A DNA stretch of 64,000 bases from an uncultured Gemmatimonadales bacterium (GTDB taxonomy: Bacteria; Gemmatimonadota; Gemmatimonadetes; Gemmatimonadales; Gemmatimonadaceae), in assembly GCA_963851265.1 (NCBI GenBank), contig CAWKNZ010000003.1, positions 32,001 to 96,000 of the forward strand. The letters are read 5' to 3'. Both the position numbers and the translations under genes were made by a program. A model generated the notes under the pieces. That model did no database searches. It was not told where the DNA came from and saw only the letters and a list, made by a program, of their open reading frames with translations. Below, in pieces: positions 2,141 through 62,096 of the stretch (positions within the stretch are counted from its first letter, which is position 1; each line of letters opens with the position of its first letter).

Positions 2141-5100
2141 ACGCCTCGATTGCCAGCGCGGCCCAGGCGTCGCACGCGCTCTCGGCCCTCGACGCGCTCA
2201 CCGGGGCCGTGCGCGACCTGCTCGGCGCCGACGTGGTGCTCGCGTTCGGGTGGAGCGACGATCGGACCGCGCGCGTGCGCGCCGCGGCTCCCGCGCTGCC
2301 GGCAGGCGGCGCGCCCGTCGCGTGGCCCGCCACCCTGACGCTCGCGCGCCCGCCGATCGCCGCGCGTGGCGGCGTGCACGTCGAGCTCGACGTTCCGCGG
2401 CGGCTCGTGTCGAACGCGCTTCGCCTCGCGCTGCCCGTGCCGGCCCGTGCTGCCCTCGTGGTCACCGCCGGCGCGCCGGACGGCATCGCCGACGATGCGT
2501 CGCCGGGCGGACTGCTGGCGATCTGGCACACGGCGCGGCTGGACGCGACGGACGCGGCGTCCCTCGGAAGCCGGGTGGCCGGACTGCGCCCCGCCCTCGC
2601 GCGCGCACTCGCCGAGGACGGCGCGGAACTGGCGCACGACCGGCTCGCTGCGCGGCTCGCGGCGGTGATGACGACGAGCGCGCAGGCGATCGTCTTCGTC
2701 GACGCGGCCGCGGGGACGATGGTGAACGCAGCCGCCGCGCGCCTGCTCGGACTCGGGCCCGGCGCGGCCGACACCGCGCACGTGGCCGAGCGCATGGCCG
2801 CGCTGCGCGCGCGGGCGGTGAACGCGGACGAGCTGGAAGCCGACGCACGCCGCCTCGTCACCGACCCCGACGCGCGGCTGGAGCACTGGAGCTGGACCTT
2901 CGACGCGCCGGAACGACTGCACCTGCGTGTCGCCTCGGTGCCGGTGGCGCGCGGCCAGTCGCCGGCGTCCACCGGCCGACTCTGGACGTTCGACGACGTC
3001 ACGCGGGAGGTCGAGGGGCAGCGCGCCGCGCGCGCGAGCGAGGCGCGCTTCCGGGCGGCGATGGACGCCTCGCCGGACGCGTGCTTCCTGCTCGAGTCGG
3101 TCGGGGGCGCCGACGGTGGCGTCGACGATTTCGTGTTCATCAAGGCGAACGCGGGCGCCGGCGCGCTGTTAGGCATGCCCGCCGAGGGGCTCGTCGGCAA
3201 GCGCATGTGCGAGACATTCCCGACGGTGCGCGGCAGCGAGCTGTTCGCCCGCTATGCGGCGGTCGCGACGACTCGCGTGATATACGAGGGCGAGTACCGA
3301 ACGCGCGACCCGCGGACCGCCGCGGCGTGGCTCTCGCTGCAGGTCGTGCCGGTGGTCGGGACGGACGCCGCGGGGAGCGGGATCGCGATCACGGCGCGCG
3401 ACGTCACGGCGGCCAAACGGGCCGAGGCGGAGGCGCGGCTGGTGCACGACGTCACGCGCGTCGTGGGCACGGCGTCCGACGCGCGGGAGGCGCTCCGGGC
3501 GGCGCTGGCCGCCATGTGCACGTCCACCGGTTTCGTGTACGGCGAAGCGTGGGTGGCGGAGACGGTGGGGCACGACGACGCGACGCGGACCGGTCCGACA
3601 ATGGTGCAGGGCCCCGTCTGGCACGCCCCGGACGACGAACGCCTGCGCGCCTTCGCCACCGCGTCCGCCGCCTACACGTTCCGCCCGAGCCAGGGCCTAC
3701 CCGGGCAGGTAGTCGCCGCGGGCGCTCCGGTGTGGCTTCCCGACATCACCGACCCGCATGCGGAATTTCAGCGCGCGGCCCTGGCGCGGCGCACGGGAAT
3801 TCGCCGCAGCTTCGCCATCCCGGTGATGGCCGACCGGAGCCTCGTCGCCGTCCTCGCGTTCTACTCGCGGGAGGCGGGCGAGTGCGGTCGGGCGGAGCGC
3901 GACCTGCTGGAGGCCGTCGGCGCGCAGGTCGGGCCGGTGGTGCGGCAGAAGCTGGCCGAAGCCGCACTGCGCGAGCGCGAGGCCGAACTGCGCGCCCTGT
4001 TCGCGGCCATGCGCGACGTCGTGCTCGTGTTCGACGCCGACGGCACGTACCTGCGGGTAATGCCCACGATGCCGGCGCGCGCCCTCCAGCCGGTCCAGGG
4101 TGTGGTGGGGCAACGCGTGCACGACGTGCTGCCGACCGACGTCGCGGACCAGATCCTTGCGACCGTGCGCCGCGTGATCGCGACGGGCACCGCGCAGCAC
4201 CTCGATTACACGATGGACGCGCCCGGCGGCCCACGGTGGATCGCCGCGACGGGTTCGCCGCTCGGCCGCGACGCCGTGCTCTGGGTGGCGCGCGACGTCA
4301 CGGTTCAGAAGTCTGCCGAGGCCGCCGTGCGTCAGAGCGAGTCGCGCTACCGCGGCGTGCTCGAAAACCTGAGCAGCTTCGCGGTGCAACTCGACCGGGC
4401 GGGGCGGATCACATTCGTGAACGACGCGCTGCTGGCGGCTACCGGCTGGACGCGCGACGAGGCGCACGGCGCGGACTACTTCGCGCGCTTCATCCCCGAC
4501 GAACACGGCCTCGGCGCGGCGTTCGCGAGGACCGTAGGGCTCGGTCGGGCCGACGGCGTGCCCGCACACTACGAGCACGAGATCCTCACGCGGGACGGAA
4601 GGCGCCGCCTCGTGGCGTGGGACACCGCGGTGCTGCGCGACAACGCAGGGCAGGTCGAGGGTGTGTCGAGCGTGGGTCGCGACGTGACCGACGAGCGCCA
4701 CCTCGCGGCCGAGCGCGAACGTCTCGTGCGCGCGCTCGAAGACTTGGCCGAGCAGGACGATCTCACGGGACTCCTCAACCGCCGGGGGTTCGTGCGCATG
4801 GCCACGCAGGAGCGCAAGAGCGCGGCGCGCACGGGGCGGCTGGACGGCGTGTGCTACGTCGATCTCGACCGCTTCAAGCCGATCAACGACACGTACGGGC
4901 ACGCGGCGGGCGACGCCGCGCTGCGTGCGGTCGCGCGCGTGCTGCGCGACACCATGCGCGGCGCCGATTTCTGCGCGCGGCTGGGCGGCGACGAGTTCGC
5001 GGTGTACGCACTGGGGATCACGGCGGCGGGAGGCACACAGGTGCTGGCCGACCGGCTGCGCGGCGCCCTGGCCGCACACAACGTGGCCGCAACCGCCGCG

Positions 5101-5238
5101 GGGCGGCCGTACGAGCTCGCGTTCAGCGTGGGGGTCGCCGAGTTCACCGGTGGCGAGCAGCTCGACGAGGTGTTGGCGCGGGCCGACGGCGCGCTCTACG
5201 CGGCGAAACGCTCCCGGGTCACGCTCGCCAGGTCATGA
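2137..5238 (+). CDS. Multi-PAS/GAF sensor diguanylate cyclase
   Basis: GTG overlaps the upstream TGA (GTGA). Four PAS-like repeats ending DDVT/RDVT and a GAF (QGLPGQVV); DDLTGLLNRR, DLDRFKPINDTYGH; RGAD I-site and GGDEF. Confidence 0.92.
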   Translation: MNASIASAAQASHALSALDALTGAVRDLLGADVVLAFGWSDDRTARVRAAAPALPAGGAPVAWPATLTLARPPIAARGGVHVELDVPRRLVSNALRLALPVPARAALVVTAGAPDGIADDASPGGLLAIWHTARLDATDAASLGSRVAGLRPALARALAEDGAELAHDRLAARLAAVMTTSAQAIVFVDAAAGTMVNAAAARLLGLGPGAADTAHVAERMAALRARAVNADELEADARRLVTDPDARLEHWSWTFDAPERLHLRVASVPVARGQSPASTGRLWTFDDVTREVEGQRAARASEARFRAAMDASPDACFLLESVGGADGGVDDFVFIKANAGAGALLGMPAEGLVGKRMCETFPTVRGSELFARYAAVATTRVIYEGEYRTRDPRTAAAWLSLQVVPVVGTDAAGSGIAITARDVTAAKRAEAEARLVHDVTRVVGTASDAREALRAALAAMCTSTGFVYGEAWVAETVGHDDATRTGPTMVQGPVWHAPDDERLRAFATASAAYTFRPSQGLPGQVVAAGAPVWLPDITDPHAEFQRAALARRTGIRRSFAIPVMADRSLVAVLAFYSREAGECGRAERDLLEAVGAQVGPVVRQKLAEAALREREAELRALFAAMRDVVLVFDADGTYLRVMPTMPARALQPVQGVVGQRVHDVLPTDVADQILATVRRVIATGTAQHLDYTMDAPGGPRWIAATGSPLGRDAVLWVARDVTVQKSAEAAVRQSESRYRGVLENLSSFAVQLDRAGRITFVNDALLAATGWTRDEAHGADYFARFIPDEHGLGAAFARTVGLGRADGVPAHYEHEILTRDGRRRLVAWDTAVLRDNAGQVEGVSSVGRDVTDERHLAAERERLVRALEDLAEQDDLTGLLNRRGFVRMATQERKSAARTGRLDGVCYVDLDRFKPINDTYGHAAGDAALRAVARVLRDTMRGADFCARLGGDEFAVYALGITAAGGTQVLADRLRGALAAHNVAATAAGRPYELAFSVGVAEFTGGEQLDEVLARADGALYAAKRSRVTLARS

Positions 5239-7798: not shown

Positions 7799-7910
7799 TG
7801 GGCGGTGGACACGGCCCGGCGCTGGTGCAAGCGCGGTGCGAGCGCGGCGGCGCGTTAGGCCATGCCCGTCTCCGCCGGCGCAGCCGGGGTGCTACGCCGC
7901 CCGCGGGGCG

Positions 7911-8750: not shown

Positions 8751-8790
8751 GCGGTCGCCGCCCCGCGCCGTCGGGCGGACCGGCCGGCGC

Positions 8791-10155
8791 CTAACGCGCC
8801 GGCCGGTCCGCCCGGGCGGGGAGCGTCAGGGTGAACGCCGCCCCGCCCTGCGGCGCGGCGCCCGCGGTGAGGTCGCCGCCCAGCGCGCGCGCGACCCGCC
8901 GCGCGGCGGCGAGTCCGACGCCCGCGCCCGCGATGTGTCGCGTGCCCGCGAGCCGCACGGACTCGGCGAACACGCGCTCGTACGCGTCGGGGGGCACGCC
9001 GGGGCCGCTATCGTGCACGGCGAGCCAGCATCCGCCGTCCGGGCCCGGGCCACCGGCGACCTCCACCCGTCCGCCGGCTGGCGTGTACTTGCACGCGTTG
9101 GACAGGAGGTTGCCGAGCACCTGGTGTACGCGGGCAGGGTCGGTGTCTACCCAGCACGGCACGCCGTCGGGGGAGCCGACGCTGCAGGTCAGCGAGAGCC
9201 CCGCGCGGGCCGCGAGGGCGGCGTGTTCGGCGACCGCGTCCCGCGCCAGCGTTTCGAGCGACACGCGGTCCGGGCGTACGGCCAGCCCCCCACCCTCGGC
9301 CATCGCGACCGCGAGCATGTCGTCGACCCCGCCGAGCGTGGCCGTGATGAGCCGATGGCTGCGCGCGAGCGAGTCGGCCTGGCGCGCGTTGACCGGTCCA
9401 AGCAGCCCGTCGGCGACGAGCTCGATGTGCCCGCGAGCGGCGGCGAGCGGATTCCGCAGGTCGTGCGTCACGCCGCGCAGAACGGCCGCGCGCTCGGTGT
9501 GCGCGGTCTCCAACTCGCGGCGCTGCGATTCGGCGAGCGCGGCGAGGCGCGCGGTGCGCAGGCCCGCGCGCGCGAGCATGAGGACGCCCAGGACGGCCAG
9601 GCCGACGAGCACGGCGTCCGTCATCACCTCCGTGTTCCGGGCCCGCGCGATGGCCCGCGTCTCGTGCTCGGTGTAGCCCGAGAGCGCGCCGTCGAGCCCT
9701 TCGGCTGCGTCGAGGGCGGCGAGGCCGCGCGTGTCGACGTGCCCCTCGTGCCAGGCCGCGACGGTCCTCCGGAGGGTGTCGGCGGAGGCGCGGATCCGCT
9801 CGTCGGTGAGCGGCGCGACGAGCGAGTCGACGGCGCGGATGTCGGCCGAGACCGTCGCGTGCGCGAGTCGCCCGCGTTCGCTCGCGTTGGGACCCATCAC
9901 CCGCGCGCCCGTGGCGGCTTCGTACAACTCGACGCCGATTCCCGCCTCGAGATCGTTCACCGCCACGCGGGCGGGGGCGACGTGTTCGGTGAGGCGCCGC
10001 CGCGCCTGGAACGGTCCCACCGACGTCACCAGCGGCACGAGGGCCAGCGCGGCGAGCAGGACGATGACGGTGGCGAACGGAATCCAGAGGGCGCCGGAGC
10101 CGACGGGCCCGGTCGACGCGGGTTCGTGCGTCACGTCGCGCGTCGAGCCGGGCAT
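8791..10155 (-). CDS. Membrane sensor histidine kinase (orphan)
   Basis: Two TM segments; HDLRNPL, NLLSNACKY, DSGPGV, GAGVGL. Confidence 0.9.
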   Translation of the reverse strand: MPGSTRDVTHEPASTGPVGSGALWIPFATVIVLLAALALVPLVTSVGPFQARRRLTEHVAPARVAVNDLEAGIGVELYEAATGARVMGPNASERGRLAHATVSADIRAVDSLVAPLTDERIRASADTLRRTVAAWHEGHVDTRGLAALDAAEGLDGALSGYTEHETRAIARARNTEVMTDAVLVGLAVLGVLMLARAGLRTARLAALAESQRRELETAHTERAAVLRGVTHDLRNPLAAARGHIELVADGLLGPVNARQADSLARSHRLITATLGGVDDMLAVAMAEGGGLAVRPDRVSLETLARDAVAEHAALAARAGLSLTCSVGSPDGVPCWVDTDPARVHQVLGNLLSNACKYTPAGGRVEVAGGPGPDGGCWLAVHDSGPGVPPDAYERVFAESVRLAGTRHIAGAGVGLAAARRVARALGGDLTAGAAPQGGAAFTLTLPARADRPAR

Positions 10156-10206
10156 GGAGGCGAGAAGGGGACCGGGTGGGGCGGAGCGCAGGCGCTGCAC
10201 TCGGGA

Positions 10207-10232
10207 GACGCGGGCGTGAGCAGGTTCGTTTA
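10207..10232 (-). promoter_or_regulatory. Candidate ECF promoter TAAACG-N16-CGT upstream of the histidine kinase
   Basis: Minus strand reads TAAACG AACCTGCTCACGCCCG CGTC. Confidence 0.7.
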
Positions 10233-10238
10233 GAACCT
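10222..10238. promoter_or_regulatory. Palindrome AGGTTC-N5-GAACCT, possible operator
   Basis: Perfect 6-bp inverted repeat in a divergent intergenic region, overlapping the TAAACG element; TTGACA at 10250-10255. Confidence 0.35.
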
Positions 10239-10317
10239 ACAGGGTGCAGTTGACAGCAGCGGAGGGCGGGGGTTGGATGCGGCGACCATCGCCCGCCCCC
10301 CTCTGCGAGTGTCCGAC

Positions 10318-11241
10318 ATGACTGTCGCACCATCAGCAACGGCCGTGAGGCCCTCCGGCGGCAGCCTCGCCGGCAAGACCCTGTTCATCACCGGGGGGAG
10401 CCGCGGCATCGGGCTCGCCATCGGGGTGCGAGCGGCCCGCGACGGCGCCAACGTCGTGATCGCGGCCAAGACCGACGCGCCGCATCCGAAGCTGCCGGGC
10501 ACGGTGCACTCCGCGGCGGCCGAGATCGAGGCGGCCGGCGGCCGGGCGCTCGGCGTCGTCTGCGACATTCGGTCGGCGGATCAGCTGCAGGCCGCGATCG
10601 ACCAGACCGTCGCGGCGTTCGGCGGGATCGACGTCGTCGTCAACAACGCGAGCGCGATCAGTCTCACGCCCACGGCCGACACCCCGATCAAGCGCTACGA
10701 CCTGATGCAGGAGGTGAACGCGCGCGGCACGTTCCTCTGCACGCAGCTGGCGCTGCCGCACCTGCGGCGCGCGCCCAATCCGCACGTGCTCACGCTGTCG
10801 CCGCCGCTCGACATGCGACCGCGCTGGTTCGCGGGCCACGTCGCTTACACGGTCGCCAAGTACGGCATGAGCATGTGCACGTTGGGCATGGCCGAGGAGT
10901 TCCGCGCGGAGGGGATCGCGGTGAACTCGCTCTGGCCGTTGACGGCGATCGACACGGCCGCCGTGCGCAACGTGCTCGGCGGGGACCGCATGGCGCGCAT
11001 GAGCCGGACCCCCGACATCGTCGCCGACGCCGCCCACGCGATCCTCACGCGGCCGGCGCGCGAGTGCACCGGCAACTTCTTCATCGACGAGGAGGTGCTA
11101 CGCGAGAGCGGGGTCACGGACTTCGCCCCGTACGCCCCGCACTCAGCCGACGGGCCGCTCGTCGCGGACTTCTTCGTTCCCGACGCGGTGTTCGAGCGGT
11201 CGCCGACGCAGGTCGTGCACGCGCTCGACGGGGCGCACTAA
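10318..11241 (+). CDS. Short-chain dehydrogenase, HSDL2/citronellol dehydrogenase-like
   Basis: ITGGSRGIG, HPKLPGT, NNASAI, YTVAKYGMS, NSLWP. Confidence 0.92.
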   Translation: MTVAPSATAVRPSGGSLAGKTLFITGGSRGIGLAIGVRAARDGANVVIAAKTDAPHPKLPGTVHSAAAEIEAAGGRALGVVCDIRSADQLQAAIDQTVAAFGGIDVVVNNASAISLTPTADTPIKRYDLMQEVNARGTFLCTQLALPHLRRAPNPHVLTLSPPLDMRPRWFAGHVAYTVAKYGMSMCTLGMAEEFRAEGIAVNSLWPLTAIDTAAVRNVLGGDRMARMSRTPDIVADAAHAILTRPARECTGNFFIDEEVLRESGVTDFAPYAPHSADGPLVADFFVPDAVFERSPTQVVHALDGAH

Positions 11242-11260
11242 CGGCGTCTCGGGTGAACGG

Positions 11261-11286
11261 TGGACCCCCGCTTTCGCGGGGGCCCA
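11261..11286. terminator. Hairpin between convergent genes
   Basis: CCCCCGC-TTTC-GCGGGGG stem-loop; no clear U tract. Confidence 0.55.
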
Positions 11287-11302
11287 GGGTTGTCACTGGC
11301 GG

Positions 11303-12667
11303 CTATTCGTACCGCAGCGCCTGAATGGGGTCGAGCGACGCCGCGCGCCGCGCGGGCCACGTCCCGAAGATCACGCCGACCACGGCGGAGAACGCGAACG
11401 CCATGATCACCGACGCCGGCGCGACCTCGGTGCTCCAGCCGAGGAACGCGTGGAGCGCGATGGCCGTCCCCCAGCCGATGGCGACGCCGATCAGCCCGCC
11501 GAGCGAGCAGAGCACCACGGCCTCGGTGAGAAACTGGAGGAGGATGGTCGCGCGCGAGGCGCCCAACGCCTTGCGCACGCCCACCTCGCGCGTGCGCTCG
11601 GTGACGGAGACGAGCATGATGTTCATGATCCCGATGCCGCCGACGAGCAGCGACACCGTCGCGACGCCGGCGAGCAGGTAGGTGAACACCTGCGTGGTCT
11701 CGCCGAGCGTGTTGAGGAAGTCGGCCTGGTTGCGGATCTGGAAGTCGTCCGGGCGGCCGACCGGCGTGCGATGCGCGCGGCGCATGATCCGCTGCACCTC
11801 GGCCATCGTCTCGGGAATCTGCGCCTCGTTCGGGGCGAGCACCGAGATGGTGCGCAGGTTCTCGGTGCCGAACAGGCCGAAACGCGCCGTCGAGAGCGGG
11901 ACGATGATCTCGTCGTCCGGATCGTTGAAGCCGGTGGCGCCGCCCTTCTGGGCGAACACCCCGATGACGGTGAACGACTGCGCGCCGAGGCGGATGCTCT
12001 GGCCGACGAGCGCCTGGGGGTCGGTGACGCCGAGGTTGCCGGCGGTGGTCGCGCCGACGACGGCGACGCGCTTGCGGCCGGCGTCGTCGGACTGGGTGAA
12101 CATGCGGCCGGCCGCCACGGTGTAGCGGCGTACATCGGCGTAGTTGGGCGACGTGCCGATGACCTGCGTGCTCGCGTTCGCGGTGCCGAACTGCACCTGC
12201 TGCTGCTTCGTCATCTCGGGTTCGACCGCGGCGATGACCTGGGCGCGCTGCGTGAGGAAGTCGGCGTCCTGCACCTTGAGCGGGGCGCGGTCGGTCTGCG
12301 ACGCGACGCCGCCGGTGAACACCTGCCCCGGAATGACGGTGAGGAGCGTGGTGCCGAGTGAGGAGATGCGGTTCTTGACCGCGTCCTGTGCGCCGCGGCC
12401 GAGCGCGAGCATGGCGATCACCGCGCCGACGCCGATGATGATGCCGAGCATCGTGAGGAGCGAGCGCAGCTTGTTGACGCGCAGCGCCTCGAGCGAGACG
12501 CGGAGCACCTCGCCGAACTGCATCCCGCGATGCTTTGCGGGCGGCGGCGGCGCGCTCCGCCGCGGAGCGGGCGACGGCTCGGGCGGCGCCCCGGGCCGGA
12601 CCGCGGGGGTCGGCTCGAGCGCGGGGTCGACCGACGTGTCGCCGGGCGGACGGAGTGTGACGGCCAT
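11303..12667 (-). CDS. MacB/FtsX-type ABC permease (no nucleotide-binding domain)
   Basis: NKLRSLLTMLGIIIGV, VGGIGIMNIMLVSVTERTREVGVRKALGA, PARRAASLDPIQALRYE; GAGGAG RBS. Confidence 0.95.
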   Translation of the reverse strand: MAVTLRPPGDTSVDPALEPTPAVRPGAPPEPSPAPRRSAPPPPAKHRGMQFGEVLRVSLEALRVNKLRSLLTMLGIIIGVGAVIAMLALGRGAQDAVKNRISSLGTTLLTVIPGQVFTGGVASQTDRAPLKVQDADFLTQRAQVIAAVEPEMTKQQQVQFGTANASTQVIGTSPNYADVRRYTVAAGRMFTQSDDAGRKRVAVVGATTAGNLGVTDPQALVGQSIRLGAQSFTVIGVFAQKGGATGFNDPDDEIIVPLSTARFGLFGTENLRTISVLAPNEAQIPETMAEVQRIMRRAHRTPVGRPDDFQIRNQADFLNTLGETTQVFTYLLAGVATVSLLVGGIGIMNIMLVSVTERTREVGVRKALGASRATILLQFLTEAVVLCSLGGLIGVAIGWGTAIALHAFLGWSTEVAPASVIMAFAFSAVVGVIFGTWPARRAASLDPIQALRYE

Positions 12668-12751
12668 CTCTGAATCTCCTCGAAAGTCGGCGGGGCCGAA
12701 CGGGACCCGCCTTACGCCGTACGCATCACGAACGGACGATGAACGCGCGCC

Positions 12752-15687: not shown

Positions 15688-15748
15688 GGCGGGGGTGCAG
15701 GCGAATGCGGCCGAGCGGTGACGCGCACCGCCCGGCCTTCGACACGTC

Positions 15749-15774: not shown

Positions 15775-15806
15775 GCGCCGCCGCCTTCGCACCCGCACCG
15801 TACTGC

Positions 15807-18321: not shown

Positions 18322-18329
18322 ACAAGGGC

Positions 18330-49724: not shown

Positions 49725-50459
49725 TCAGGCCGCCAGCCGCTCCAGCCCGCCGCTCTCCGCCACCCCCGCCCCCGCGGCCGCCCACCGCTCGACCATCGCG
49801 TCCACACGCTCCAGCCCCAGCCCCCACGTCGCATCCCGCACGACCACCACCTCGTACCCCCGTGCCAGCAGCCCCTCCACCGCCTGCCGCACGCAGACGT
49901 CGGCCGCGACCCCGCACACCACGAACGCCGGCGCCGCCGCGGCTCCGCGCGCCACGGCCGCGGCCAGCGCCGCCACGAACGCGTCCGCCCCCGGGTTCCC
50001 GTCGAACACCGAGAACTCGCGCTTGTGCACGAACACCGGCTGCCCCGCCGCGGCCGCCTCCGCCGCCGCGCGCGCCTCGCCCTCGGTCGCGTCGCGGCCT
50101 AACACCACCGTCGCCGCCGGGTCGGGCGCGACGCTCGGCAGCAGCTCCGCCCCGCGCCGCTCCGCGGCGTCGGGCGAGAGCCCCATGCAGTGCGGCGGGT
50201 ACGTCCCGCGCGTGGCGTCGGGCGCGACCGCGTCGATCTCCCGGTCGTCGGCGGCGTGCCAGTCGCCGGTGTACACGAGCGCGTCCGCGTGCGCCCTCAG
50301 CCACGCCACCGTCCGCTCGATCGCCGGCAACGCCCGCGTCGCGCCCGCGTCGGCGGCGTCGAACAGGTCGTGCACGTAGAGCCGCCCCCCGGCGTCCGGC
50401 GGGTCCATGAAGTCGCGCTGCACGTCGACCACCCAGCCGATGAGCGGACGCGCGTTCAC
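49725..50459 (-). CDS. Isochorismatase/nicotinamidase-like cysteine hydrolase
   Basis: VDVQRDF, DWH, PPHCM, HK..FSVF, GVAADVCV; GTGA overlap. Confidence 0.87.
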   Translation of the reverse strand: MNARPLIGWVVDVQRDFMDPPDAGGRLYVHDLFDAADAGATRALPAIERTVAWLRAHADALVYTGDWHAADDREIDAVAPDATRGTYPPHCMGLSPDAAERRGAELLPSVAPDPAATVVLGRDATEGEARAAAEAAAAGQPVFVHKREFSVFDGNPGADAFVAALAAAVARGAAAAPAFVVCGVAADVCVRQAVEGLLARGYEVVVVRDATWGLGLERVDAMVERWAAAGAGVAESGGLERLAA

Positions 50460-51562: not shown

Positions 51563-54500
51563 GTGACTGACCGCCTTCCGCCTTCCGCCGTGACGCCCCC
51601 GCCCGCCGTCGCCGTTCCGACGTACGTCGGCCCGGAGCGCCGCGGCCCCGACCGCCTCCCGGTCTTTCTCGAGCCGACGGGGCGCCGGTGGGAGCGGATC
51701 CGCAGCACGGTCCGCGCGGTCGCGGTGGTCACGAGCCTGCTCGCCCTCGTCGTCGTCGTCGTCGCCCTCGTCGCGCCGAACCTCGGCGGACTCGGGAACA
51801 CGCTGCTCCCCGAGCATCGCGTGCTCGGCCACCCCGCACGGTTGCTGCTCACGAAGAACGCCCGCCAGCGCGCCATCCAGGAGAACCGGCTGTACGGCGC
51901 GCTCAAGGCCAACCGCACGCCCAAGGGCGTGCGCGCCTCCGAGATTCGCGTCGACCCGCGGGCCAAGAAGCCCGGCCGCGTCCCGCTCGCCGATGAGCGC
52001 ACCGATCCGATCGTCGCCGGCTTTTACGTGTCGTGGGACACCACGTCGCGCGTGTCGCTCGCGCGCTACGTCAAGCACCTCGACTGGGTGGTCGGCGAGT
52101 TCGCCTTCGTCGACTCCACCGGCGACTCGCTGCAGGTCAAGGTCGACAAGCGCATCTTCGACATCGTCGACACGGTCGCCGAGGCCGAACGGCCGCGCGT
52201 CTTCCTCATGGTGTCCAACGCCTTCCGCGGCGAGTTCACGCCGCGCGCCCTCGTTCGCCTCACGGGCAGCGCCGCCGGCCGCACGCGCGCGGTGACCCAG
52301 CTCGTCGCCGCCGTGCGCCAGTACGGCTTCGCCGGCGTCACGCTCGACTTCGAGAACTTCCCCCCGTCGGCCGACCCCGGGCTCCTCGCCTTCGCGCGCG
52401 AGCTGCACGACGCGCTCAAGCCCGCCGGCGCGATCCTCACCCAGACCATCGCCACCGACGAGATCGAAGCCGAACGCGCCGCGCGGTACGCGTCGTTCAG
52501 CGACTACGTGTTCCTGATGCTCTACGACGAGCACTACAACACGAGCGGCGCGGGTCCGGTGGCCAGCCAGGCGTGGTTCGAGGCGCACGCGCGCGATTAC
52601 CTGCGCTACATCCCCGCCCGCAAGTCGATCGTCGCACTCGGCGCCTACGGCTACGACTGGAACGACGCGGAGTCGAAGGTCACGACGGTCAAGTTCCAGG
52701 ACGTGATCGAGTTCGCGCGCAACAACGCGGCGACGATGCAGTGGGACGCCCGGTCGCTCAACCCGTACATCACCTGGACCGACCCCGACTCGACCGACCA
52801 CGTCGTCTGGTACCTCGACGGCGCGAGCGCGTTCAACCAGGCGCGCGCCGCGATGCGCATGGGCGTCGCGGGCCTCGGCGTCTGGCGCCTCGGCTCTGAA
52901 GACCCGTCGATGTGGCGCGTGATCGACCGCGCGGGCGTCGCGGCCAGCCCCGCGCCCCTCGCCACCATCGACTCGCTCTACGACGTGGACTTCGTCGGCA
53001 CCGGCGAGGTGCTCAAGATCATCGCCACGCCCACCGCCGGCGCGCGCACCCTCACGGTCGACCCCAACACCGGCTTCGTCACCGGACAGACCGTCACCGC
53101 GCTTCCCTCGCCCTACATCGTGCAGCGTGCGGGCGCGCACCCGGGCAACCCGCCCGGGAAGGGCGGTCGCAAGATCGCCCTCACCTTCGACGACGGCCCC
53201 GACGGCCAGTGGACGCCGCCGATCCTCGACACGCTCAAACGGTACGGCGTACCGGCGACGTTCTTCGTGATCGGGCAGAACGTGCAGAACCACCTCGCCC
53301 TCACGCGTCGCGTGTACCGCGAGGGGCACGAGATCGGGAACCACACCTACACGCACCCCAACCTCGCGCTCGAGCCGCGCTGGCTGCAGCGCCTCGAGAT
53401 CGACGCCACCGCGCGCATCCTCGAGGCCGCGCTCGACCGCCAGTCGGCCCTCTTCCGCCCGCCCTACTTCGGGGACGCCGAGCCGACCACCACCGACGAG
53501 CTCGGGCCGGTGAGCGTGGCCAGCCGCCTCGGCTTCGTCACGGCCGGCCTCCACCTCGACGGCGAGGACTGGGACCTCGCCAACACGCGCACGCCCGAGC
53601 AGATCGTCCAGAACGTGCTCGAGGCGCGCGACGCGCGCCCCCTCGACGGCAACGTCGTCCTGCTGCACGACGGCGGCGGCAACCGGCGGCTGACCGTCGC
53701 CGCGTTAGGCCCGCTCGTCGACTCGCTGCGCGCGCGCGGCGACACGCTCGTCCTCTTCTCCGAACTCACCGGGGTGCCGCGCGACGCGGCGATGCCGCCG
53801 CTCGCGCGCGGCAGCCTCGCGGTCCGCTGGCTCGAACTCGCCGGCTTCGGCCTCATCGGCGGCGGCGAGTGGGTGCTCTTCTGGGTGCTCACCGTCGCGG
53901 TCGTGCTCGGCCTCGCGCGGCTCGCCTTCATCATGACGCTCGCCGCCGTGCACCGCGTGCGCTCGGGCCGCGTCGCCGCGCGCCTCGACGCCCTCGCCGC
54001 GGAAGGGCGGCCCTCGCCGGGCCACGACTACGCGCCGAGCGTGAGCGTGATCGTCCCCGCGTACAACGAGGAGAAGGTCATCGTGAAGACGATCACCTCG
54101 CTCCTGACGCAGCGGTACGCCGGCCCGCTCGAGATCGTCGTCGTCGACGACGGCTCCCCCGACAGCACGTACGAGATCGCCGAGCACGCCTACGCCCAGC
54201 ACCCGCAGGTCTCCGTCTACACCAAGCCCAACGGCGGCAAGGCCAGCGCGCTCAACTACGGCATCGCCCGCGCGCGCGGCGAGATCGTCATCGGCCTCGA
54301 CGCCGACACGGTCTTCCTGCCCAACACCACCGCCGAGCTCATCGCCCCGCTCGCGGACCCGAAGGTGGGCGCGGTGGCCGGCAACGCGAAGGTCGGCAAC
54401 CGCGTCAACATCGTCACCCAGTGGCAAGCCGTCGAGTACGTGACGAGTCAGAACCTCGACCGGCGCGCCTTCGCCCTCCTCGACTGCATCACCGTCGTGC

Positions 54501-55198
54501 CGGGCGCCGTGGGCGCGTGGCGCCGCGCGCTCGTCCTCGAGGTGGGCGGCTTCAGCGACGACACCCTCGCCGAGGACCAGGACCTCACGCTCGAGATCCG
54601 CCGCCGCGGCTACTCGGTCGCCTACGCCGACCACGCCGTCGCCTACACCGAGGCGCCCGACACGCTCCGCGGCCTCGCCAAACAGCGCTTCCGTTGGAGC
54701 TTCGGCACCCTGCAGTGCATGTGGAAGCACCGCGACGTGCTGCTCCGCCCGCGCTACGGCTCGCTCGGCACGGTCGCGATGCCTAACGTGTGGATCTTCC
54801 AGCTCGTCTTCGCGGCGATCGGGCCCGTCGCCGACCTGATGTTCGTGCTGAGCATCCTGTCGGTGTGGCTCAACAAGCTGCAGCACGGCTCCACGTACGC
54901 GCTCGTCAACCTGCAGCAGATCCTCGCCTACTACGCGGTCTTCCTCGTCGTCGACTGGCTCGCCGCGGTGCTCGCCTTCCTCATGGAGCCGGGCGAGGAC
55001 AAGCGGCTCACCTGGCTCATCTTCCTGCAGCGCTTCGCCTACCGCCAGGTGATGTACTGGGTGGTGGTGCGCTCGTTCGCGGCCGCGCTGCGCGGCCGGG
55101 TCGTGGGCTGGGGTAAGCTCGACCGCACGGGCGCGGTCACCGTGCCGGGCGGCGCAGGAGGCGCGCGGCGGTGGTGGCAGCGGCCCCGCCCGGCCTAG
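51563..55198 (+). CDS. Trimodular GH18-like / CE4 deacetylase / GT2 polysaccharide synthase
   Basis: GVTLDFE, LYDEH, WRLGSED; TFDDGP, NHTYTH, FRPPY, LLHDGG; PAYNEE, DDGS, GGKA, DAD, LAED, QRFRW. Start uncertain. Confidence 0.93.
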   Translation: MTDRLPPSAVTPPPAVAVPTYVGPERRGPDRLPVFLEPTGRRWERIRSTVRAVAVVTSLLALVVVVVALVAPNLGGLGNTLLPEHRVLGHPARLLLTKNARQRAIQENRLYGALKANRTPKGVRASEIRVDPRAKKPGRVPLADERTDPIVAGFYVSWDTTSRVSLARYVKHLDWVVGEFAFVDSTGDSLQVKVDKRIFDIVDTVAEAERPRVFLMVSNAFRGEFTPRALVRLTGSAAGRTRAVTQLVAAVRQYGFAGVTLDFENFPPSADPGLLAFARELHDALKPAGAILTQTIATDEIEAERAARYASFSDYVFLMLYDEHYNTSGAGPVASQAWFEAHARDYLRYIPARKSIVALGAYGYDWNDAESKVTTVKFQDVIEFARNNAATMQWDARSLNPYITWTDPDSTDHVVWYLDGASAFNQARAAMRMGVAGLGVWRLGSEDPSMWRVIDRAGVAASPAPLATIDSLYDVDFVGTGEVLKIIATPTAGARTLTVDPNTGFVTGQTVTALPSPYIVQRAGAHPGNPPGKGGRKIALTFDDGPDGQWTPPILDTLKRYGVPATFFVIGQNVQNHLALTRRVYREGHEIGNHTYTHPNLALEPRWLQRLEIDATARILEAALDRQSALFRPPYFGDAEPTTTDELGPVSVASRLGFVTAGLHLDGEDWDLANTRTPEQIVQNVLEARDARPLDGNVVLLHDGGGNRRLTVAALGPLVDSLRARGDTLVLFSELTGVPRDAAMPPLARGSLAVRWLELAGFGLIGGGEWVLFWVLTVAVVLGLARLAFIMTLAAVHRVRSGRVAARLDALAAEGRPSPGHDYAPSVSVIVPAYNEEKVIVKTITSLLTQRYAGPLEIVVVDDGSPDSTYEIAEHAYAQHPQVSVYTKPNGGKASALNYGIARARGEIVIGLDADTVFLPNTTAELIAPLADPKVGAVAGNAKVGNRVNIVTQWQAVEYVTSQNLDRRAFALLDCITVVPGAVGAWRRALVLEVGGFSDDTLAEDQDLTLEIRRRGYSVAYADHAVAYTEAPDTLRGLAKQRFRWSFGTLQCMWKHRDVLLRPRYGSLGTVAMPNVWIFQLVFAAIGPVADLMFVLSILSVWLNKLQHGSTYALVNLQQILAYYAVFLVVDWLAAVLAFLMEPGEDKRLTWLIFLQRFAYRQVMYWVVVRSFAAALRGRVVGWGKLDRTGAVTVPGGAGGARRWWQRPRPA

Positions 55199-55233: not shown

Positions 55234-58200
55234 ATGACCGCGCCGTCAGCTCCACGGCCCCGCCCGCCGGCGGGCGGCCCATCGGCCGACGGCGCCGACG
55301 CGACCGGCGCGTCGAGGACGCCGGATCGGCGCGGGAACGGCACGTCGACGGGTGCGGCGTCGGTCGCGCCCGCCGGAGGGGGCCGGGCCGGCGACGACGC
55401 CGCCCGCCCCGTCGTCACCCCGGCCGCGGAGGCGCAGATCGCCGAGCGCACGCGCTGGATCGGACCCGCCATCGCCGTCGTGCTGTTCGCGGTCGCGCTC
55501 GTCGTCCTCCAGCGCGAGCTCGCCGCCTACCGTTTCGCCGACGTCACGCGCGCCTTCCACGCGATCCCCGGTTCGCGGCTCGGCACGGCGCTCGCCTTCA
55601 CGGCGCTGAGCTACGCGGTGCTCCCCGGATACGACGCGCTCGCACTCGCCTACGTGCGACGTGAGCTGCCGCTCCGCCGCGTCGCGTTCGCCTCGTTCCT
55701 CTCGTACGCCATCTCGCACACGCTCGGCTTCCCGGTGCTCACCGGCGGCGCCGTACGCGTGCGCTTCTGGAGCGGCTGGGGCCTTTCCACGGGCGAGATC
55801 GCGCAAGCCGTCAGCTTCGCCGGCTTCGCTTTCACGGTTGGCATGGTGCTCATGGCCGGCGTGGTGTTCGTCGCGGCACCGTCCGAAATGACGCGGCTGC
55901 TGCACCTGCCATTCGCGTCGCTGCAGCCCGTCGGGCTCGCCCTCCTCGCCCTCGTCGCCGCGTACGTGGCGTGGAGCGTCGTGACCGCCGTGCGCGGCGT
56001 GCAGGCCGAACCCGCGTACGGCCGCCGAGCCTTCGACCCGCCCGACACGGGTGGCACCGCCGCCGATGCCCGCGTGCACGAGGGGCCCGCCCTCGTCGCC
56101 TCGCCCACCGCGGGAGCGGGACTCACCCCCGTCATCCCCGTTCGCTCCGCGGGCCCCGACACCGCGATCGACGCGTCCGTCCTCTCCGACACCACGCCGC
56201 TCGCGCTCGACGCGGTGGTGCCCGACCGCACCGGTCCGCCAGGCACCGAGGGGCGCGGACGCGCGAGCGCCACGGGCCGCATCCGGATCGGCGGTTGGGC
56301 GTTCCCCGTCCCCAGCCCGCGCCTCGCGATCTCGCAGCTCGTCCTCGCCGCGCTCGACTGGACCATCGCCGGCGCGGTGCTCTGGGCGCTGCTCCCGCAC
56401 GGTGCCGACCTCGGGGCGGTCCCGTTCTTCCCGTTCCTCGGCGCGTTCCTCCTCGCCCAGTTCGCCGGCGTGCTGAGCCACGTGCCCGGCGGACTCGGCG
56501 TGTTCGAATCGCTGCTCGTGCTGCTGCTCGGCCGGTACGTGCCGGCAGCGCAGGTGCTCGGCGCCCTCGTCGCCTACCGCGCCGTCTACTACCTCCTGCC
56601 GTTCGTCACGGCGGTCGCGGCGTTCGGCGTCTACGAGACGCGACTGGGGCAGCACCGCGTCGCCATCGTCGCCGCGCGCAGCGCGCGCGCCTTCGGGCGC
56701 GTGGGGCCCGTCGTCGTGCCCGCGGCGCTCAGCTTCGCCACGTTCGCGGCCGGCGCGGTGCTGCTCGTCTCGGGCGCGACGCCCTCGCTTCACCATCGCC
56801 TCGTCGTCCTGCACACGGAGCTCCCGCTCGGCGTCATCGAGCTTTCGCACCTCGCCGCCTCGCTCGCCGGTGCCGCGCTCCTCGTCGTCGCGTGGGCCGT
56901 CCGCCGCCGCCTCGACGCGGCGTGGGGTCTCGCGGTCGCGCTGCTCGGCGTGGGCATAGTCGGCTCGCTGCTCAAGGGGCTCGACTACGAGGAGGCGATC
57001 GTTCTCACCCTCGTGCTGGCCGCCCTCCTGCCGAGTCGCAAGGCGTTCTACCGGAAGGCCGCCCTCATGAGCGAGTCCTTCACGCCGGGGTGGACGGTCG
57101 CGGTCGCCCTCGTGCTGGGCATCTCGGTCTGGCTCGGCTTCTTCTCGTACAAGCACGTCGAGTACTCCAACGACCTCTGGTGGCGTTTCACGGTCCGCGG
57201 CGACGCGCCCCGATTCCTCCGCGCCACGGTCGGCGCCGCCGGCGGGCTGCTCGTCTTCGGCCTGGCGCGGCTCCTCCGCCACGCCCCCGCCGACCCCGAG
57301 CCGCCAGCGCCGGCCGACCTCGCGCGCGCGGCCGCGGTCATCGCCACGGCCCCCAACACCGAAGCCAACCTCGCCCTCCTCGGCGACAAGTCGCTGCTCT
57401 TTTCGGCGCGCGGCAACGCCTTCGTCATGTACGGCGTGTCGGGCCGCAGCTGGGTCGCGTTAGGCGACCCCGTGGGGCCGGCCGACGAGCACGCGGAGCT
57501 CGCGTGGAAGTTCAAGGAGGCCGCCGACGAGCACGGCGGCTGGCCGGTGTTCTACCAGGTGAGCGTCGACCACCTGCCGCTCTACATCGACCTCGGCCTC
57601 ACGCTGTTGAAGCTCGGCGAGGAGGCGCGAATCCCGCTGCCCAAGTTCTCGCTCGACGGCGGCGCGCGGAAGAGCATGCGCCGCATCGTGAACGCGGTGG
57701 ACAAGACCGGCGCGAGTTTCGAGGTCGTCGGCCCCGAGCAGGTGCCGGCCCTGCTGCCCGAGCTGCGCCGCGTGAGCGACGCGTGGCTCGCGAGCAAGCG
57801 GGTGCGCGAGAAGGGCTTCTCGTTAGGCTACTTCGACGAGGACTATCTGCGCCACTTCCCGCTCGCCCTCGTCCGCGCCCCGCGCCGCGACGGCGGCGAT
57901 CGCACCGGCGACCAGATCGTCGCGTTCGCCAACCTCTGGACCGGCGCCGGAAAGCACGAGCTGTCCATGGACCTCATGCGCTACGCCCCCGAGGCGCCCG
58001 AGAGCGTGATGGAATACCTCTTCCTCCAACTCATGACCTGGGGCAAGGCGCAGGGCTTCGAGGAGTTCAACCTCGGCATGGCCCCGCTCTCCGGATTCGA
58101 GAGCCGGTCGCTCGCCCCGCTCTGGATTCGCGCCGGCGCCCTCGTGTACCAGCACGGCGAGAACTTCTACAATTTCCAGGGCCTCCGCCGCTACAAGGAG

Positions 58201-59087: not shown

Positions 59088-60376
59088 GCCACGCGCCCCA
59101 CACCGGCGACTCACGCGCAGCCACCTCCGAGACCGCACAGGTCCCCTGCCCGCTCGCCCTCACCCTCGCCGGCCGACTCCGCGACGCGCGCGACGACCTC
59201 ACCGCACGCTGGCTCGAGCGAATCACTCAGCGGGTCGCGCTCGACGCGAACCGCGTCTTCCCCACCGACGAACTGCTCGACCACGTCCCGCTCCTGCTCG
59301 CCGGCGTCGCCGACTACATCGAGAGCCCGGGCGCCGCGGTCCAGGCCGACTCGGCCGTCATGGCGAAGGCCATGGAGTTAGGCGCACTCCGCCACTCGCA
59401 GGGCTTCGACGCCTACGAGGTGCTGAAGGAGTACGAGATCCTCGGCGGCATCGTCTTCGCCTACCTCACCACCGTCGTCGACCAGATCCCCGAGGAGTGC
59501 TCGCGCGCGGAGCTGTTCGTGTGCGCGCACCGCGTGTTCCACGCGATCACCCTCATCCAGCAAGCGACCACCGTCCAGTTCCTGCAGCGCACCACCGAGC
59601 GCCTGCACGAGCGCGACGAGCGCCTGCGCGCCTTCAACCGCACGCTCGCCCACGAGTTCCGCAACCGCATCGGCGCGGCCTCGGGCGCGGCCCAGCTGTT
59701 AGGCCTCGTCGAACTTCCCGAGACCGACCGGCGCGCGATGGCCGACGTGGTCGTGCGCAACGTCGACGGGATGCGCGCCACGCTCGAGAACCTGCTCGAG
59801 CTCTCGCGCATGGGCCAGGCCGACACTCGGCAGCAGCGCCACGTGCTGCTCCCGCGCGCCGCCGCCGAGGTGGCGCGCTCGCTCCGCGACTTCGCCGCCG
59901 CGCACCGCGTCGACGTGCGCGTCGACGCGCTCCCCGACGTCGAAGTCAACGCGGCCGCCGTCGAGCTCTGCCTCACGAACCTCGTCTCCAACGCCGTCAA
60001 GTACGCCGACCCCGCCAAGCCCGTCCGCTGGGTTGTCGTCGACGGCGAGCTCGCCTCCGACGCCGACGAGGGCCGCGAGGTGGTCATCCGCGTCCGCGAC
60101 AACGGCCTCGGCGTCCCCGAGCCGCAGCGCGAGGGGCTCTTCCGCCGCTTCTTCCGCGCCCACGAGCACTCCGCCTCGCACGTCGAGGGCACCGGCCTCG
60201 GCCTCAGCATCGTCCGCGAGACCGTGCGTGCGTTAGGCGGCCGCGTCTGGGCCGAGTTCCCCGACGTGGGTACCGTCTTCGCCTTCGCCCTCCCCGCGCG
60301 CCGCGGGACCGACCGCTCTCCCGCCGCTGCCGCCCCCACCGCTGCCGCCCCTGCCGCGGGCGACCCCGCAGCGTGA
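59084..60376 (+). CDS. Soluble histidine kinase with RsbRD-like N-terminal helical domain
   Basis: ATGA overlap; RWLERI, LLDHVP, LG.LRHSQGF; HEFRN, NLVSNAVKY, DNGLGV, GTGLGL. Confidence 0.9.
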   Translation: MSHAPHTGDSRAATSETAQVPCPLALTLAGRLRDARDDLTARWLERITQRVALDANRVFPTDELLDHVPLLLAGVADYIESPGAAVQADSAVMAKAMELGALRHSQGFDAYEVLKEYEILGGIVFAYLTTVVDQIPEECSRAELFVCAHRVFHAITLIQQATTVQFLQRTTERLHERDERLRAFNRTLAHEFRNRIGAASGAAQLLGLVELPETDRRAMADVVVRNVDGMRATLENLLELSRMGQADTRQQRHVLLPRAAAEVARSLRDFAAAHRVDVRVDALPDVEVNAAAVELCLTNLVSNAVKYADPAKPVRWVVVDGELASDADEGREVVIRVRDNGLGVPEPQREGLFRRFFRAHEHSASHVEGTGLGLSIVRETVRALGGRVWAEFPDVGTVFAFALPARRGTDRSPAAAAPTAAAPAAGDPAA

Positions 60377-60837
60377 GCGGCATCACCTGGCGTGTCGCCG
60401 CGTTCCACGACCTCTCCCTCGGCGACCTGTACGCCGCGCTCCAGCTCCGCTCCCTCGTCTTCGTCGTCGAGCAGACGTGCCCCTTCCTCGACCTCGACGG
60501 CGACGACGACCGCGCCTGGCACCTGCTCGGCTGGCATGAGCGCGACGGCGGCCCGCGGCTCGCCGCGTACGCCCGCCTCTTCGCCCCGGGCATCAAGTAC
60601 GCCGAAGCCTCCATCGGCCGCGTCGTCACCCACCCCGACGTCCGCCGATCCGGCGCCGGCCGCGCCCTCATGGCAGAGGCCATCGCTCGGTTAGGCACCC
60701 TCGCCCCGGGTGCCCCCGTCCGCATCGGCGCGCAGAAATACCTCGAGCAGTTCTACGCCCGATTCGGCTTCACCCGCGCCGGCGACGACTACCTGGAAGA
60801 CGGCATCGTCCACCTCGAGATGACGCGCCCCGCGTAA
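60373..60837 (+). CDS. elaA: ElaA-like GNAT acetyltransferase
   Basis: LRSLVFVVEQTCP.DLDG, IGRVVT, IGAQ.YL..FY, YLEDGIVH. Confidence 0.9.
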   Translation: MSGITWRVAAFHDLSLGDLYAALQLRSLVFVVEQTCPFLDLDGDDDRAWHLLGWHERDGGPRLAAYARLFAPGIKYAEASIGRVVTHPDVRRSGAGRALMAEAIARLGTLAPGAPVRIGAQKYLEQFYARFGFTRAGDDYLEDGIVHLEMTRPA

Positions 60838-60878
60838 GCCTCGAACGCCGGGCGGGGCCTATCGGCCGCCGACCACCC

Positions 60879-62096
60879 TCACGGCCGCGCGCCCTCCTCC
60901 CCGAACACGAGGTCGTCGACCCCGCCATCGCCGGGCCGCATCTGCGCGTCCGGCTCCCCGCCGCGCCCCGCGATCCGCGCCAACACCGGCGGCGCCATGA
61001 AGGTCGTCGCGAGCACCATCAGGGCCACGGCACTGAACAACGCGGGCGACAGGGCGTGACTCGCCAGCCCCGCCTGCGCGAAGATCAACCCCACTTCCCC
61101 GCGCGGAATCATCGCCGCCCCGATCAGCGACTTGCGCCCACGGAACCACACCGGCGCATACCCGGCGAGGAACTTCCCCACCACCCCCGTCGCGACCAGC
61201 GCCGCCCCGACGGCGAGCGTCTGCGGGTCGCCTAACGTTCGGACGTCCACCGACGCACCGACCGCGGCGAAGAACACCGGCACCACGAGGTGCCCGACCG
61301 TCGTCGTCGCCTGCTCGACCTCCGCACGCTGCGGCGTCTCGTGCAGCACGAGTCCCGCGGCGAACGCGCCGATGATCGTCGCCGACCCGACCCCCTCGGC
61401 GAGCCACGCCAGCGCGAACGCGAACGCCAGCCCGACCACCACCAGCGTCCCGGGCGCCTGCATCCGCGCCGCGGCGCGGAACATCGGCGGCGCGAGCAAC
61501 CGACCGAGCAGCAGCGCGCCCGCGATGAACCCCGCGGCGACCGCCGTCGTCCGCGCGACCAGCAACACGCCGACGCCCGCGCCCGCCACCACCGCGCCCA
61601 CCACGGCGAGGATCACGAGCCCCACCACGTCGTCGAGCACCGCCGCGCCTAACACTACCTGGCCTTCCGGCGTTTCCAGCTGGCCGAGGTCGCTCAGCAC
61701 CCGCGCCGAGATCCCGATCGACGTGGCCGAGAGCGACGCGGCCGCGACCACCGCGGCGAGCGGCGGCAACCCGAGCGCGGTCACCGCCGCGTAGCCCATC
61801 ACGCACGGCAGCGCGACGCCTACCAGCGCCACCGTCGTCGCCGCACCGCCCACGCGCACCAGCGCCCGCAGGTCGGTTTCCAGCCCGATCTCGAACAACA
61901 GCACGAGCACGCCGATCTGCGACAGCGCGTGGATCACCGGGTCCGCCGGATCGAGAACCCGGAGCAACGACCCGCCGAGCAGCACGCCCGCAACGAGCTC
62001 GCCCAGCACTGCGGGTTGTCCGAAGCGCTGGGCGAGGGCCCCGAGCAATTTGGTCGCGACGAGAAGGGCGACGAGCGCGCCGAGCAGGTGGTGCAT
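60879..62096 (-). CDS. CPA2 cation:proton antiporter (NapA/KefB-like)
   Basis: QPAVLGE, LFEIGLE, ATSIGI, AAVLDD, PVFF, MIPRGEV. Confidence 0.93.
   Translation of the reverse strand: MHHLLGALVALLVATKLLGALAQRFGQPAVLGELVAGVLLGGSLLRVLDPADPVIHALSQIGVLVLLFEIGLETDLRALVRVGGAATTVALVGVALPCVMGYAAVTALGLPPLAAVVAAASLSATSIGISARVLSDLGQLETPEGQVVLGAAVLDDVVGLVILAVVGAVVAGAGVGVLLVARTTAVAAGFIAGALLLGRLLAPPMFRAAARMQAPGTLVVVGLAFAFALAWLAEGVGSATIIGAFAAGLVLHETPQRAEVEQATTTVGHLVVPVFFAAVGASVDVRTLGDPQTLAVGAALVATGVVGKFLAGYAPVWFRGRKSLIGAAMIPRGEVGLIFAQAGLASHALSPALFSAVALMVLATTFMAPPVLARIAGRGGEPDAQMRPGDGGVDDLVFGEEGARP

Follow-up and report, generated by a model that had tools for sequence, protein, structure and literature searches.

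The heptanucleotide GTTAGGC is repeated far beyond expectation in the genome of an uncultured Gemmatimonadales bacterium (G000: 4.6 Mb, 73% GC, 94% complete, 12 contigs), from which a window of 64,000 nucleotides was analysed (G000:C3:32001-96000). The word is real, strong and apparently undescribed, and the sequence around its copies is depleted of A and T. GTTAGGC probably anchors GC-biased conversion or repair tracts. The whole chain that we propose, in which it is a putative uptake-sequence-like tag that makes its own fragment the recombination donor, could equally well be right or wrong.

Abundance, placement and origin of GTTAGGC

The source genome holds 1,762 copies over all 12 contigs, approximately one per 2.6 kb, and these account for 71% of all its TTAG tetramers. 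The original prediction, made from the window alone, listed 28 copies, and every coordinate and strand is exact. It expected about 5 from base composition, in agreement with a mononucleotide expectation of 5.2, and 100 dinucleotide shuffles of the window gave a mean of 1.98 and a maximum of 6. It also described the word in several reading frames and as stop codons, which is what the gene calls show (a purpose-made dicodon gene caller, 3,751 genes in the genome): 19 window copies are read G-TTA-GGC (Leu-Gly), two GTT-AGG and one CCT-AAC, two supply TAG stops and two TAA stops, and the remaining two are intergenic.

The enrichment persists when codons are preserved, with 1,283 coding copies against 17 after synonymous resampling, a 75-fold excess. 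All 19 TTA codons of the window's genes lie within the word, as do 995 of the 1,281 in the genome, so that TTA is not equally common in other contexts. Stop codons are affected also: TAA makes up 126 of 260 stops in the GCC-stop-C context against 438 of 3,751 overall, and TAG 84 of 91 in the GT-stop-GC context against 757 of 3,751. The earlier view that selection acts at the DNA level, on an iterated word restricted to a lineage, therefore stands, and the excess is no effect of codon use. It should be noted that a Markov ranking of order k-2 masks GTTAGGC, since the word saturates its own sub-words.

The orientation of copies was thought to follow the coding strand. This is correct as an observation, as 23 of the 26 genic sites in the window are sense, but it is a by-product of the peptides that allow the word. 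Proteins offer more Leu-Gly openings, and the sense-strand bias arises from this rather than from a strand preference: the word fills 991 of 10,793 Leu-Gly openings in sense (9.2%) and 198 of 1,425 Pro-Asn openings in antisense (13.9%). The 5-prime base has a graded effect, with openings filled to 14-22% after NCG codons, 4-8% after NTG and 0.4-3.5% after others.

Chi and the FtsK orienting polar sequences (KOPS), which serve recombination or segregation, resemble GTTAGGC in that they too are short, lack symmetry and are over-represented. A polar signal of this kind, or a bldA-like control through TTA, is consistent with a non-palindromic word of this density, most of whose coding copies use TTA. 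Such a Chi-, KOPS- or codon-level signal is nonetheless refuted by the polarity and frame tests, and we give it next to no credence. Here, no replichore bias was found around dif (intergenic copies on contig C2 are 38 leading and 35 lagging), the zone of effect around copies is symmetric, the word fills antisense openings no less often than sense ones, and stop codons and spacers carry it. The dif-like site used lies at G000:C2:1,368,947 and contains GTTATGT. A xerC/D gene lies 21 kb away, gene orientation converges strongly on the site over about 0.5 Mb to each side, and GC skew is almost nil.

Orthologue alignments show how copies originate. They match substituted, ungapped sequence, often via GTTGGGC or GCTGGGC, and at 908 Leu-Gly sites kept in G000 and its relative G004 the word is present in both at 65, where 12.7 are expected. 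Copies arise through point substitution at permissive sites and are then conserved.

Enrichment across 41 genomes of the order (including G011, a baseline genome that carries none of the conclusions) was measured as the ratio of GTTAGGC to HTTAGGC; a reversed-pattern control is poor here. The word is enriched in 16 genomes, at ratios of 2.3 to 70, and at baseline (0.4-1.6) in the other 25. G012 has 7,758 copies and G042 (Roseisolibacter) 42, and density spans about 100-fold across the order. In a sample of 151 genomes of the phylum, nine have more than 150 copies of CGTTAGGC, all within the order; none of the 45 from outside it exceeds 70. On a tree of a conserved methylase described below (30 rows; short rows and G011 left out), the word-rich label changes eight times, five of these forced by well-supported branches. 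Some positions are soft in a genus-specific manner, with CGTTAGGT and CGTTATGC in G012, CGTTTGGC in G008 and CGTCAGGC in G040, and such graded positions fit a binding preference. The word also occurs in a cultured type strain, G. kalamazoonensis KBS708, where plasmid 2 has 806 copies in 1.04 Mb, and 82 of 91 TTA codons in 300 kb of plasmid lie within it.

The idea that each lineage iterates its own methylase-dialect word was rejected: no comparable dispersed word is present in 66-80 kb from each of ten copy-poor relatives. Two of the ten show longer repeat elements. Abundant repeats that are probably of this longer sort are the GGAAGCGGGAAG-type words in G019 (L042-L045) and the TGACTAGTCA-type words in G020 (L070-L073).

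Long word-free stretches exist. One of 45 kb (G000:C1:182876-227962) holds gidA, parA, parB and mnmE-like genes and has above-average A+T at third codon positions (AT3); further deserts cover the pheST/infC and infB/secDF regions. In the 12 most AT-rich genes, none of 15 openings carries the word. Separately, GAGCTC, CTCGAG, AGCGCT, GGCGCC and similar six-base palindromes are avoided in this genome.

The GC halo and the spacing of copies

A+T at fourfold sites is 4.0% within 100 bp of a copy and rises to 8.9% beyond 5 kb. A/T-ending codons are reduced by about 40% near copies, an effect that is symmetric and decays over a length of about 300 bp. When measured within genes, the bins closest to a copy reach 0.68-0.74 of expectation on both sides, a V shape that is absent for all seven control words. 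The effect is clear at sense and antisense coding copies and noisy at intergenic and stop copies. AT3 is 0.0316 around the word, as opposed to 0.0493 +/- 0.0011 around the remaining Leu-Gly sites of the 756 genes concerned (matched ratio 0.63, 95% 0.58-0.68). A logistic fit to 1.19 million codons yields an exponential decay of about 300 bp that is additive over copies, with a peak (logit) of -0.6 with gene effects and -0.8 with 30 kb effects.

All codon families show the halo (A/T-ending ratios of 0.32-0.86), and the choice between G and C hardly shifts, which argues against selection for optimal codons by a logic set out in PMC4450053. The halo extends to amino acids: Ile/Val, Thr/Ala, Gln/Arg and Ser/Gly ratios are 8-14% lower near the word, and seven other pairs show no such fall.

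Comparison of lineages showed which changes are responsible. The near/far ratios are 0.52 for C>T, 0.68 for G>A, 0.64 for C>A and 0.57 for G>T, and swaps between G and C are neutral (C>G 1.03, G>C 1.00). Near the word, A/T seen in the sister genome survives 0.47 as often as it does far away, and it is on this figure that a rise in weak-to-strong changes rests; GC-to-AT amino-acid changes near the word stand at 0.74. In addition, the halo goes with the lineage that carries the copy, as seen in 283 orthologues from G004 and 86 from G001; Fisher tests gave p 0.001 and 1e-5. At copies found only in G000, the A/T private to this genome is 0.026 near and 0.044 far, with that of the relative flat; at relative-only copies, it is the relative's private A/T that falls, from 0.039 far to 0.022 near, and that of G000 goes only from 0.055 to 0.046. 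The halo is also clear in G004 and G001 themselves. In public sequencing runs, whose contigs are short and mixed, at most a third of the sampled words were present.

A zone that is centred on a motif, symmetric and decaying, and in which strong-to-weak changes are down while strong-to-strong ones are not, is what GC-biased conversion tracts would be expected to leave. The halo bears the signature of GC-biased gene conversion, which it resembles in reduced strong-to-weak change, in neutral G/C swaps and in the failure of optimal-codon choice as an explanation. Such conversion is motif-centred at the PRDM9 hotspots of mammals. For bacteria, it has been reported at the level of genes (PMC4450053). 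What sets the present case apart is a resolution down to individual bacterial sites, and a motif that accumulates instead of eroding.

A nucleoid protein might produce a similar pattern. It would nucleate at the word, spread for about 300 bp and shield DNA from cytosine deamination and guanine oxidation, with selection spacing the sites for coverage. The symmetric decay, the lowering of both C>T and G>T, and a word that is orientation-neutral and evenly spaced all agree with this. We find it quite unlikely, as the retention of 0.47 suggests that A/T is lost faster, beyond any slowing of its gain, core genes lie in long deserts, and word density varies so widely across the order.

Copies also exclude one another, a feature that, like the halo, the original prediction did not note. 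There are 28 coding pairs less than 300 bp apart. Random placement of the copies over permitted sites gives 115 +/- 11 (200 draws, minimum 91), and the deficit is seen in all orientations. Leu-Gly openings are filled to 0.4% within 100 bp of another copy and to 12.5% beyond 600 bp. The close-pair dip is repeated in G012 and G004, and is weaker on the G. kalamazoonensis plasmid. The halo can explain this exclusion only in part. Arithmetic from the halo alone predicts ratios of 0.26-0.34, 0.38-0.45 and 0.50-0.57 for the three nearest distance bins; those observed are 0.034, 0.19 and 0.42. Contrary to this exclusion, a few intergenic copies form direct pairs 12-19 bp apart, both in G000 and on the G. 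kalamazoonensis plasmid.

The window copies are collected in Table 1. No Rfam match was found in the window.

Table 1. Copies of GTTAGGC and an 18.8 kb gap between them in the window (positions in the window; gene spans from the dicodon caller)
Feature	Position	Strand	Context
word	3168..3174	+	G-TTA-GGC in PAS/GAF/GGDEF gene 2137-5238
word	7854..7860	+	intergenic
word	8789..8795	-	supplies TAG stop of histidine kinase gene 8791-10155(-)
word-free stretch, 18.8 kb	8796..27618		efflux, FecR, TonB-receptor genes
word	27619..27625	+	Leu-Gly, gene 24881-28759
word	28267..28273	+	Leu-Gly, gene 24881-28759
word	31808..31814	-	Leu-Gly, gene 30266-34054(-)
word	33107..33113	-	Leu-Gly, gene 30266-34054(-)
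word	35113..35119	+	other strand GCC-TAA-C, stop of gene 35114-35527(-)
word	37071..37077	+	Leu-Gly, radical SAM gene 35740-37143
word	37981..37987	+	Leu-Gly, gene 37154-38818
word	38814..38820	+	supplies TAG stop of gene 37154-38818
word	43347..43353	-	read GCC-TAA-C, stop of dehydrogenase gene 42588-43352(+)
word	44918..44924	+	GTT-AGG (Val-Arg), gene 44414-45559
word	45667..45673	+	GTT-AGG (Val-Arg), gene 45556-46365
word	46817..46823	+	Leu-Gly, decarboxylase gene 46398-47873
word	47018..47024	+	Leu-Gly, gene 46398-47873; 201 bp after copy 46817, closest pair in window
word	48655..48661	+	intergenic
word	50097..50103	-	Leu-Gly, gene 49725-50459(-)
word	53704..53710	+	Leu-Gly, glycosyltransferase gene 51590-55198
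word	54781..54787	-	antisense, read CCT-AAC (Pro-Asn), gene 51590-55198(+)
word	57459..57465	+	Leu-Gly, mprF 55171-58323
word	57822..57828	+	Leu-Gly, mprF 55171-58323
word	59377..59383	+	Leu-Gly, histidine kinase gene 59084-60376
word	59698..59704	+	Leu-Gly, gene 59084-60376
word	60232..60238	+	Leu-Gly, gene 59084-60376
word	60690..60696	+	Leu-Gly, GNAT gene 60373-60837
word	61230..61236	-	Leu-Gly, Na/H exchanger gene 60879-62096(-)
word	61647..61653	-	Leu-Gly, gene 60879-62096(-)

Two neighbourhoods in the window may be mentioned. At 35740-38818, a radical SAM gene with a putative role in DNA modification/repair (TIGR03916) precedes one for a TIGR03915 protein that has a fused DUF72-like domain; 51590-59087 is a single run of a GH18/deacetylase/GT2 fusion, a long MprF (1,050 aa) and a VirJ-family hydrolase.

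Candidate readers of the word

The first candidate is a type IIG/DrmMI-like N6-adenine methylase of 1,141 aa, whose gene precedes that of an SNF2/DrmD-like helicase (759 aa) on the minus strand at G000:C7:579717-585511 (L007:4717-10511). The methylase occurs in 38 and the helicase in 37 of the 41 genomes regardless of the word; the pair is single-copy, adjacent in most of them, and its tree follows families. It looks like a domesticated orphan, which is unusual for restriction-modification genes. A single-sequence fold of the methylase was unusable (predicted local distance difference test score 37), and a PDB search gave no match. G000 also has two type I-like methylase genes, at contig ends.

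In a methylation ratchet of the type proposed for highly iterated palindrome 1 (HIP1; Elhai's model), a methylase marks the word, and methyl-directed repair makes and keeps copies. Type IIG enzymes read asymmetric words, and an N6-adenine methylase that spans the order as a single copy, its motifs intact and its C-terminal region conserved, would suit such a scheme. However, the single-molecule real-time methylome of G. kalamazoonensis KBS708 lists RGATCY, ATGCAC and CCAGN7TCA only (PMC3974934). The absence of GTTAGGC from the list for a word-carrying strain argues against an adenine-methylation mark, and the modification site suggested by the original prediction is not borne out; for N6-methyladenine the ratchet is largely refuted. 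As a guess from that methylome, the target of the orphan methylase may be ATGCAC; RGATCY and ATGCAC show at most a 0.95 dip in G000. Moreover, neither a C5 methylase nor a PF01555 match was found in the 94% complete G000, and soft positions are unlike a methylase target. The conserved methylase was rejected as the reader, being present with or without the word and having C-terminal blocks that are alike in word-rich and word-poor groups. HIP1 itself, examined on 250 kb of one Nostoc plasmid with crude open-reading-frame calls, shows only a weak within-gene dip (0.97) and a weak halo. Taken together, these points make the ratchet highly improbable.

HIP1 (GCGATCGC) of cyanobacteria is like GTTAGGC in its hyper-abundance, its overriding of codon use and its conservation, as described in PMC5861425 and PMC4390886. 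It differs in that it is palindromic and paired with cognate methylases, and GTTAGGC is asymmetric and missing from the methylome list. Of the iterated motifs that the original prediction offered as models, an uptake-like sequence fits best and HIP1 less well for this reason.

Alternatively, repair inside the cell could be anchored at the word. In this rival, a protein at the unmethylated word would correct heteroduplex mismatches up to about 300 bp away in favour of G/C and of the strand with the intact word, so that the word would ratchet up without uptake. The footprint would be that of GC-biased conversion, the halo is additive, MutS and MutL motifs are present in G000, and the orphan methylase and helicase, being order-wide, could be a site-loaded machine. 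Against this, the pair does not track the word, Vsr is found in 4 of the 41 genomes, all of them word-poor, and NucS was not found in G000. Furthermore, transversions are down as much as transitions, which ordinary mismatch repair would not bring about. We consider this explanation unlikely.

The spelling of the word recalls integrons. The consensus of the attC R box is GTTRRRY, and attC-like sites in G000 and its relatives read GCCTAACG...YGTTAGGC, with the same word and the same 5-prime pyrimidine, so that the word is identical in spelling to the attC cores of this order. Cassette ends also carry the variants GTTATGC and GTTAGGT, and these show enrichment in G012, G008 and G040. The reader could be an integron integrase, another tyrosine recombinase domain or a cassette-catching uptake receptor, for which the R box has become a genome-wide tag; the GTTATGT within the dif-like site and an intI in 30 of 41 genomes are in keeping with this. 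Nevertheless, intI does not track the word: many of the 30 are word-poor, and it was not found in G008, G013, G016 and G018. GTTAGAC, which ranks second among attC cores (6 of 34 rows), is enriched in G000 (46 against 12) but not in three relatives. The attC hairpin architecture is limited to a handful of sites on C6 and C10, all but about ten of the 1,762 copies being lone words, and none of the 28 window copies has an integron partner within 160 bp. Dispersed copies are point substitutions without cassette scars, and insertion into genes would be counter-selected. An integron-derived reader is therefore very unlikely in our judgement.

In G000 itself, intI is apparently split by an 890 aa recombinase-like gene at G000:C6:30-6230, with attC-like sites and small cassette genes alongside, and more attC-like sites lie near a contig end at G000:C10:188936-203792.

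Competence genes are widespread in the order, with ComEC in 40 and DprA in 38 of the 41 genomes. By sequence reading, G000 has comEA-like, pilB, pilT and pilC genes and four pilin-like genes. None of ComEC, DprA, IntI, the SNF2-like helicase and Vsr tracks the word across the 41 genomes. The region G000:C7:759939-775054 carries the comEA-like, pilB, pilT and pilC genes, then a fragmented type I restriction-modification island and an insertion sequence at the contig end.

Likeness to uptake sequences and its meaning

The closest known systems are the DNA uptake sequence (DUS) of Neisseriaceae and the uptake signal sequence (USS) of Pasteurellaceae. Like these, GTTAGGC is a non-palindromic word, present in thousands of copies (1,000-8,000 per genome for this kind of word) on both strands and beyond codon effects, at permissive sites in genes, conserved and evenly spaced, with lineage dialects and a host that has competence genes. 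USS copies, too, arise by point change, according to PMC7811141. The chance that GTTAGGC works like an uptake sequence, as a candidate member of the DUS/USS kind, is about even. The literature covered, with most subscription papers and all supplements outside the search, contained no description of a GTTAGGC/GCCTAAC motif or of a Gemmatimonad uptake sequence, and no report of a GC halo around DUS or USS.

We propose that (C>T)GTTAGGC would be a word recognised by a protein in double-stranded DNA, and that DNA carrying it may be the favoured donor in short homologous-recombination events, most likely through natural-transformation machinery that prefers word-bearing fragments. The proposal starts from the observations that permissive sites gain copies by point change, irrespective of strand and frame, that these copies are then kept, and that GC-to-AT change is suppressed and A/T lost faster around them, with G/C swaps untouched. 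The halo would reflect GC-biased gene conversion, each tract having the word at its centre and spanning about 600 bp in all, at the low end of neisserial conversion fragments. DUS spacing tracks the size of these fragments, 573-1,734 nt (PMC2397512), and uptake declines with distance from a USS (PMC7811141).

A motif that starts conversion on its own chromosome would be overwritten. GTTAGGC accumulates, which would place it on the donor side, like DUS and USS under molecular drive. Sequence-biased uptake would give both a donor-side word and the redundancy of close copies: a second copy in the same tract would gain little and cost two disfavoured A/T changes, hence the exclusion. The candidate reader would lie within the order-wide type IV pilus/ComEA/ComEC apparatus, with lineages differing in their level of transformation; ComEC-linked recombination has been reported for soil populations (PMC7305173). 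A bolder form of the proposal, which we regard as doubtful, is that this is a third independent DNA self-tag, outside Proteobacteria, derived from the integron attC core: a cassette-catching receptor would now favour CGTTAGGC fragments, and each copy would be a donor-side hotspot with a GC-biased tract.

Several observations weigh against the uptake proposal. The word is shorter (7-8 bp) than DUS and USS (9-10 bp), is patchy within the order and does not seem to be enriched in core genes, with deserts that cover the gidA-parAB, pheT and infB/secDF regions (genes named by sequence reading). The terminator pairs of DUS and USS are not a feature of GTTAGGC, for which 6 of the 19 pairs closer than 60 bp, among 1,750 gaps, are inverted. 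Competence genes are equally present in word-poor genomes. The additive halo fits better than a nearest-site model (log-likelihood gain 365 against 343), which is not as expected if one tag per fragment suffices. AT-to-GC amino-acid changes are up only 1.08-fold, which is not significant. The halo is weaker in G008 and G012 and not significant in G040, and on 300 kb of G. kalamazoonensis plasmid the nearest bin is 0.86, yet that of the control RGATCY is 0.90. Finally, a closely similar footprint would result if the word were a site of GC-favouring repair or of shielding from damage.

In the literature covered, uptake tags have been described so far from two proteobacterial families. A third tag family, in an abundant soil phylum, would, if true, mean that such tags have evolved repeatedly. 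The halo also bears on an old question, why bacterial genomes are GC-richer than mutation predicts, as a GC-favouring force is here pinned to 1,762 points, with a range of about 300 bp and a size of 0.6-0.8 logit, and moves with the word between lineages. If the self-tag reading is true, conversion tracts would be readable base by base, and the density of the word would contribute to the GC content of each gene. Sister genera that have or lack the word provide controls, and a cultured type strain carries it, so that conversion, repair and selection can be separated at the bench.

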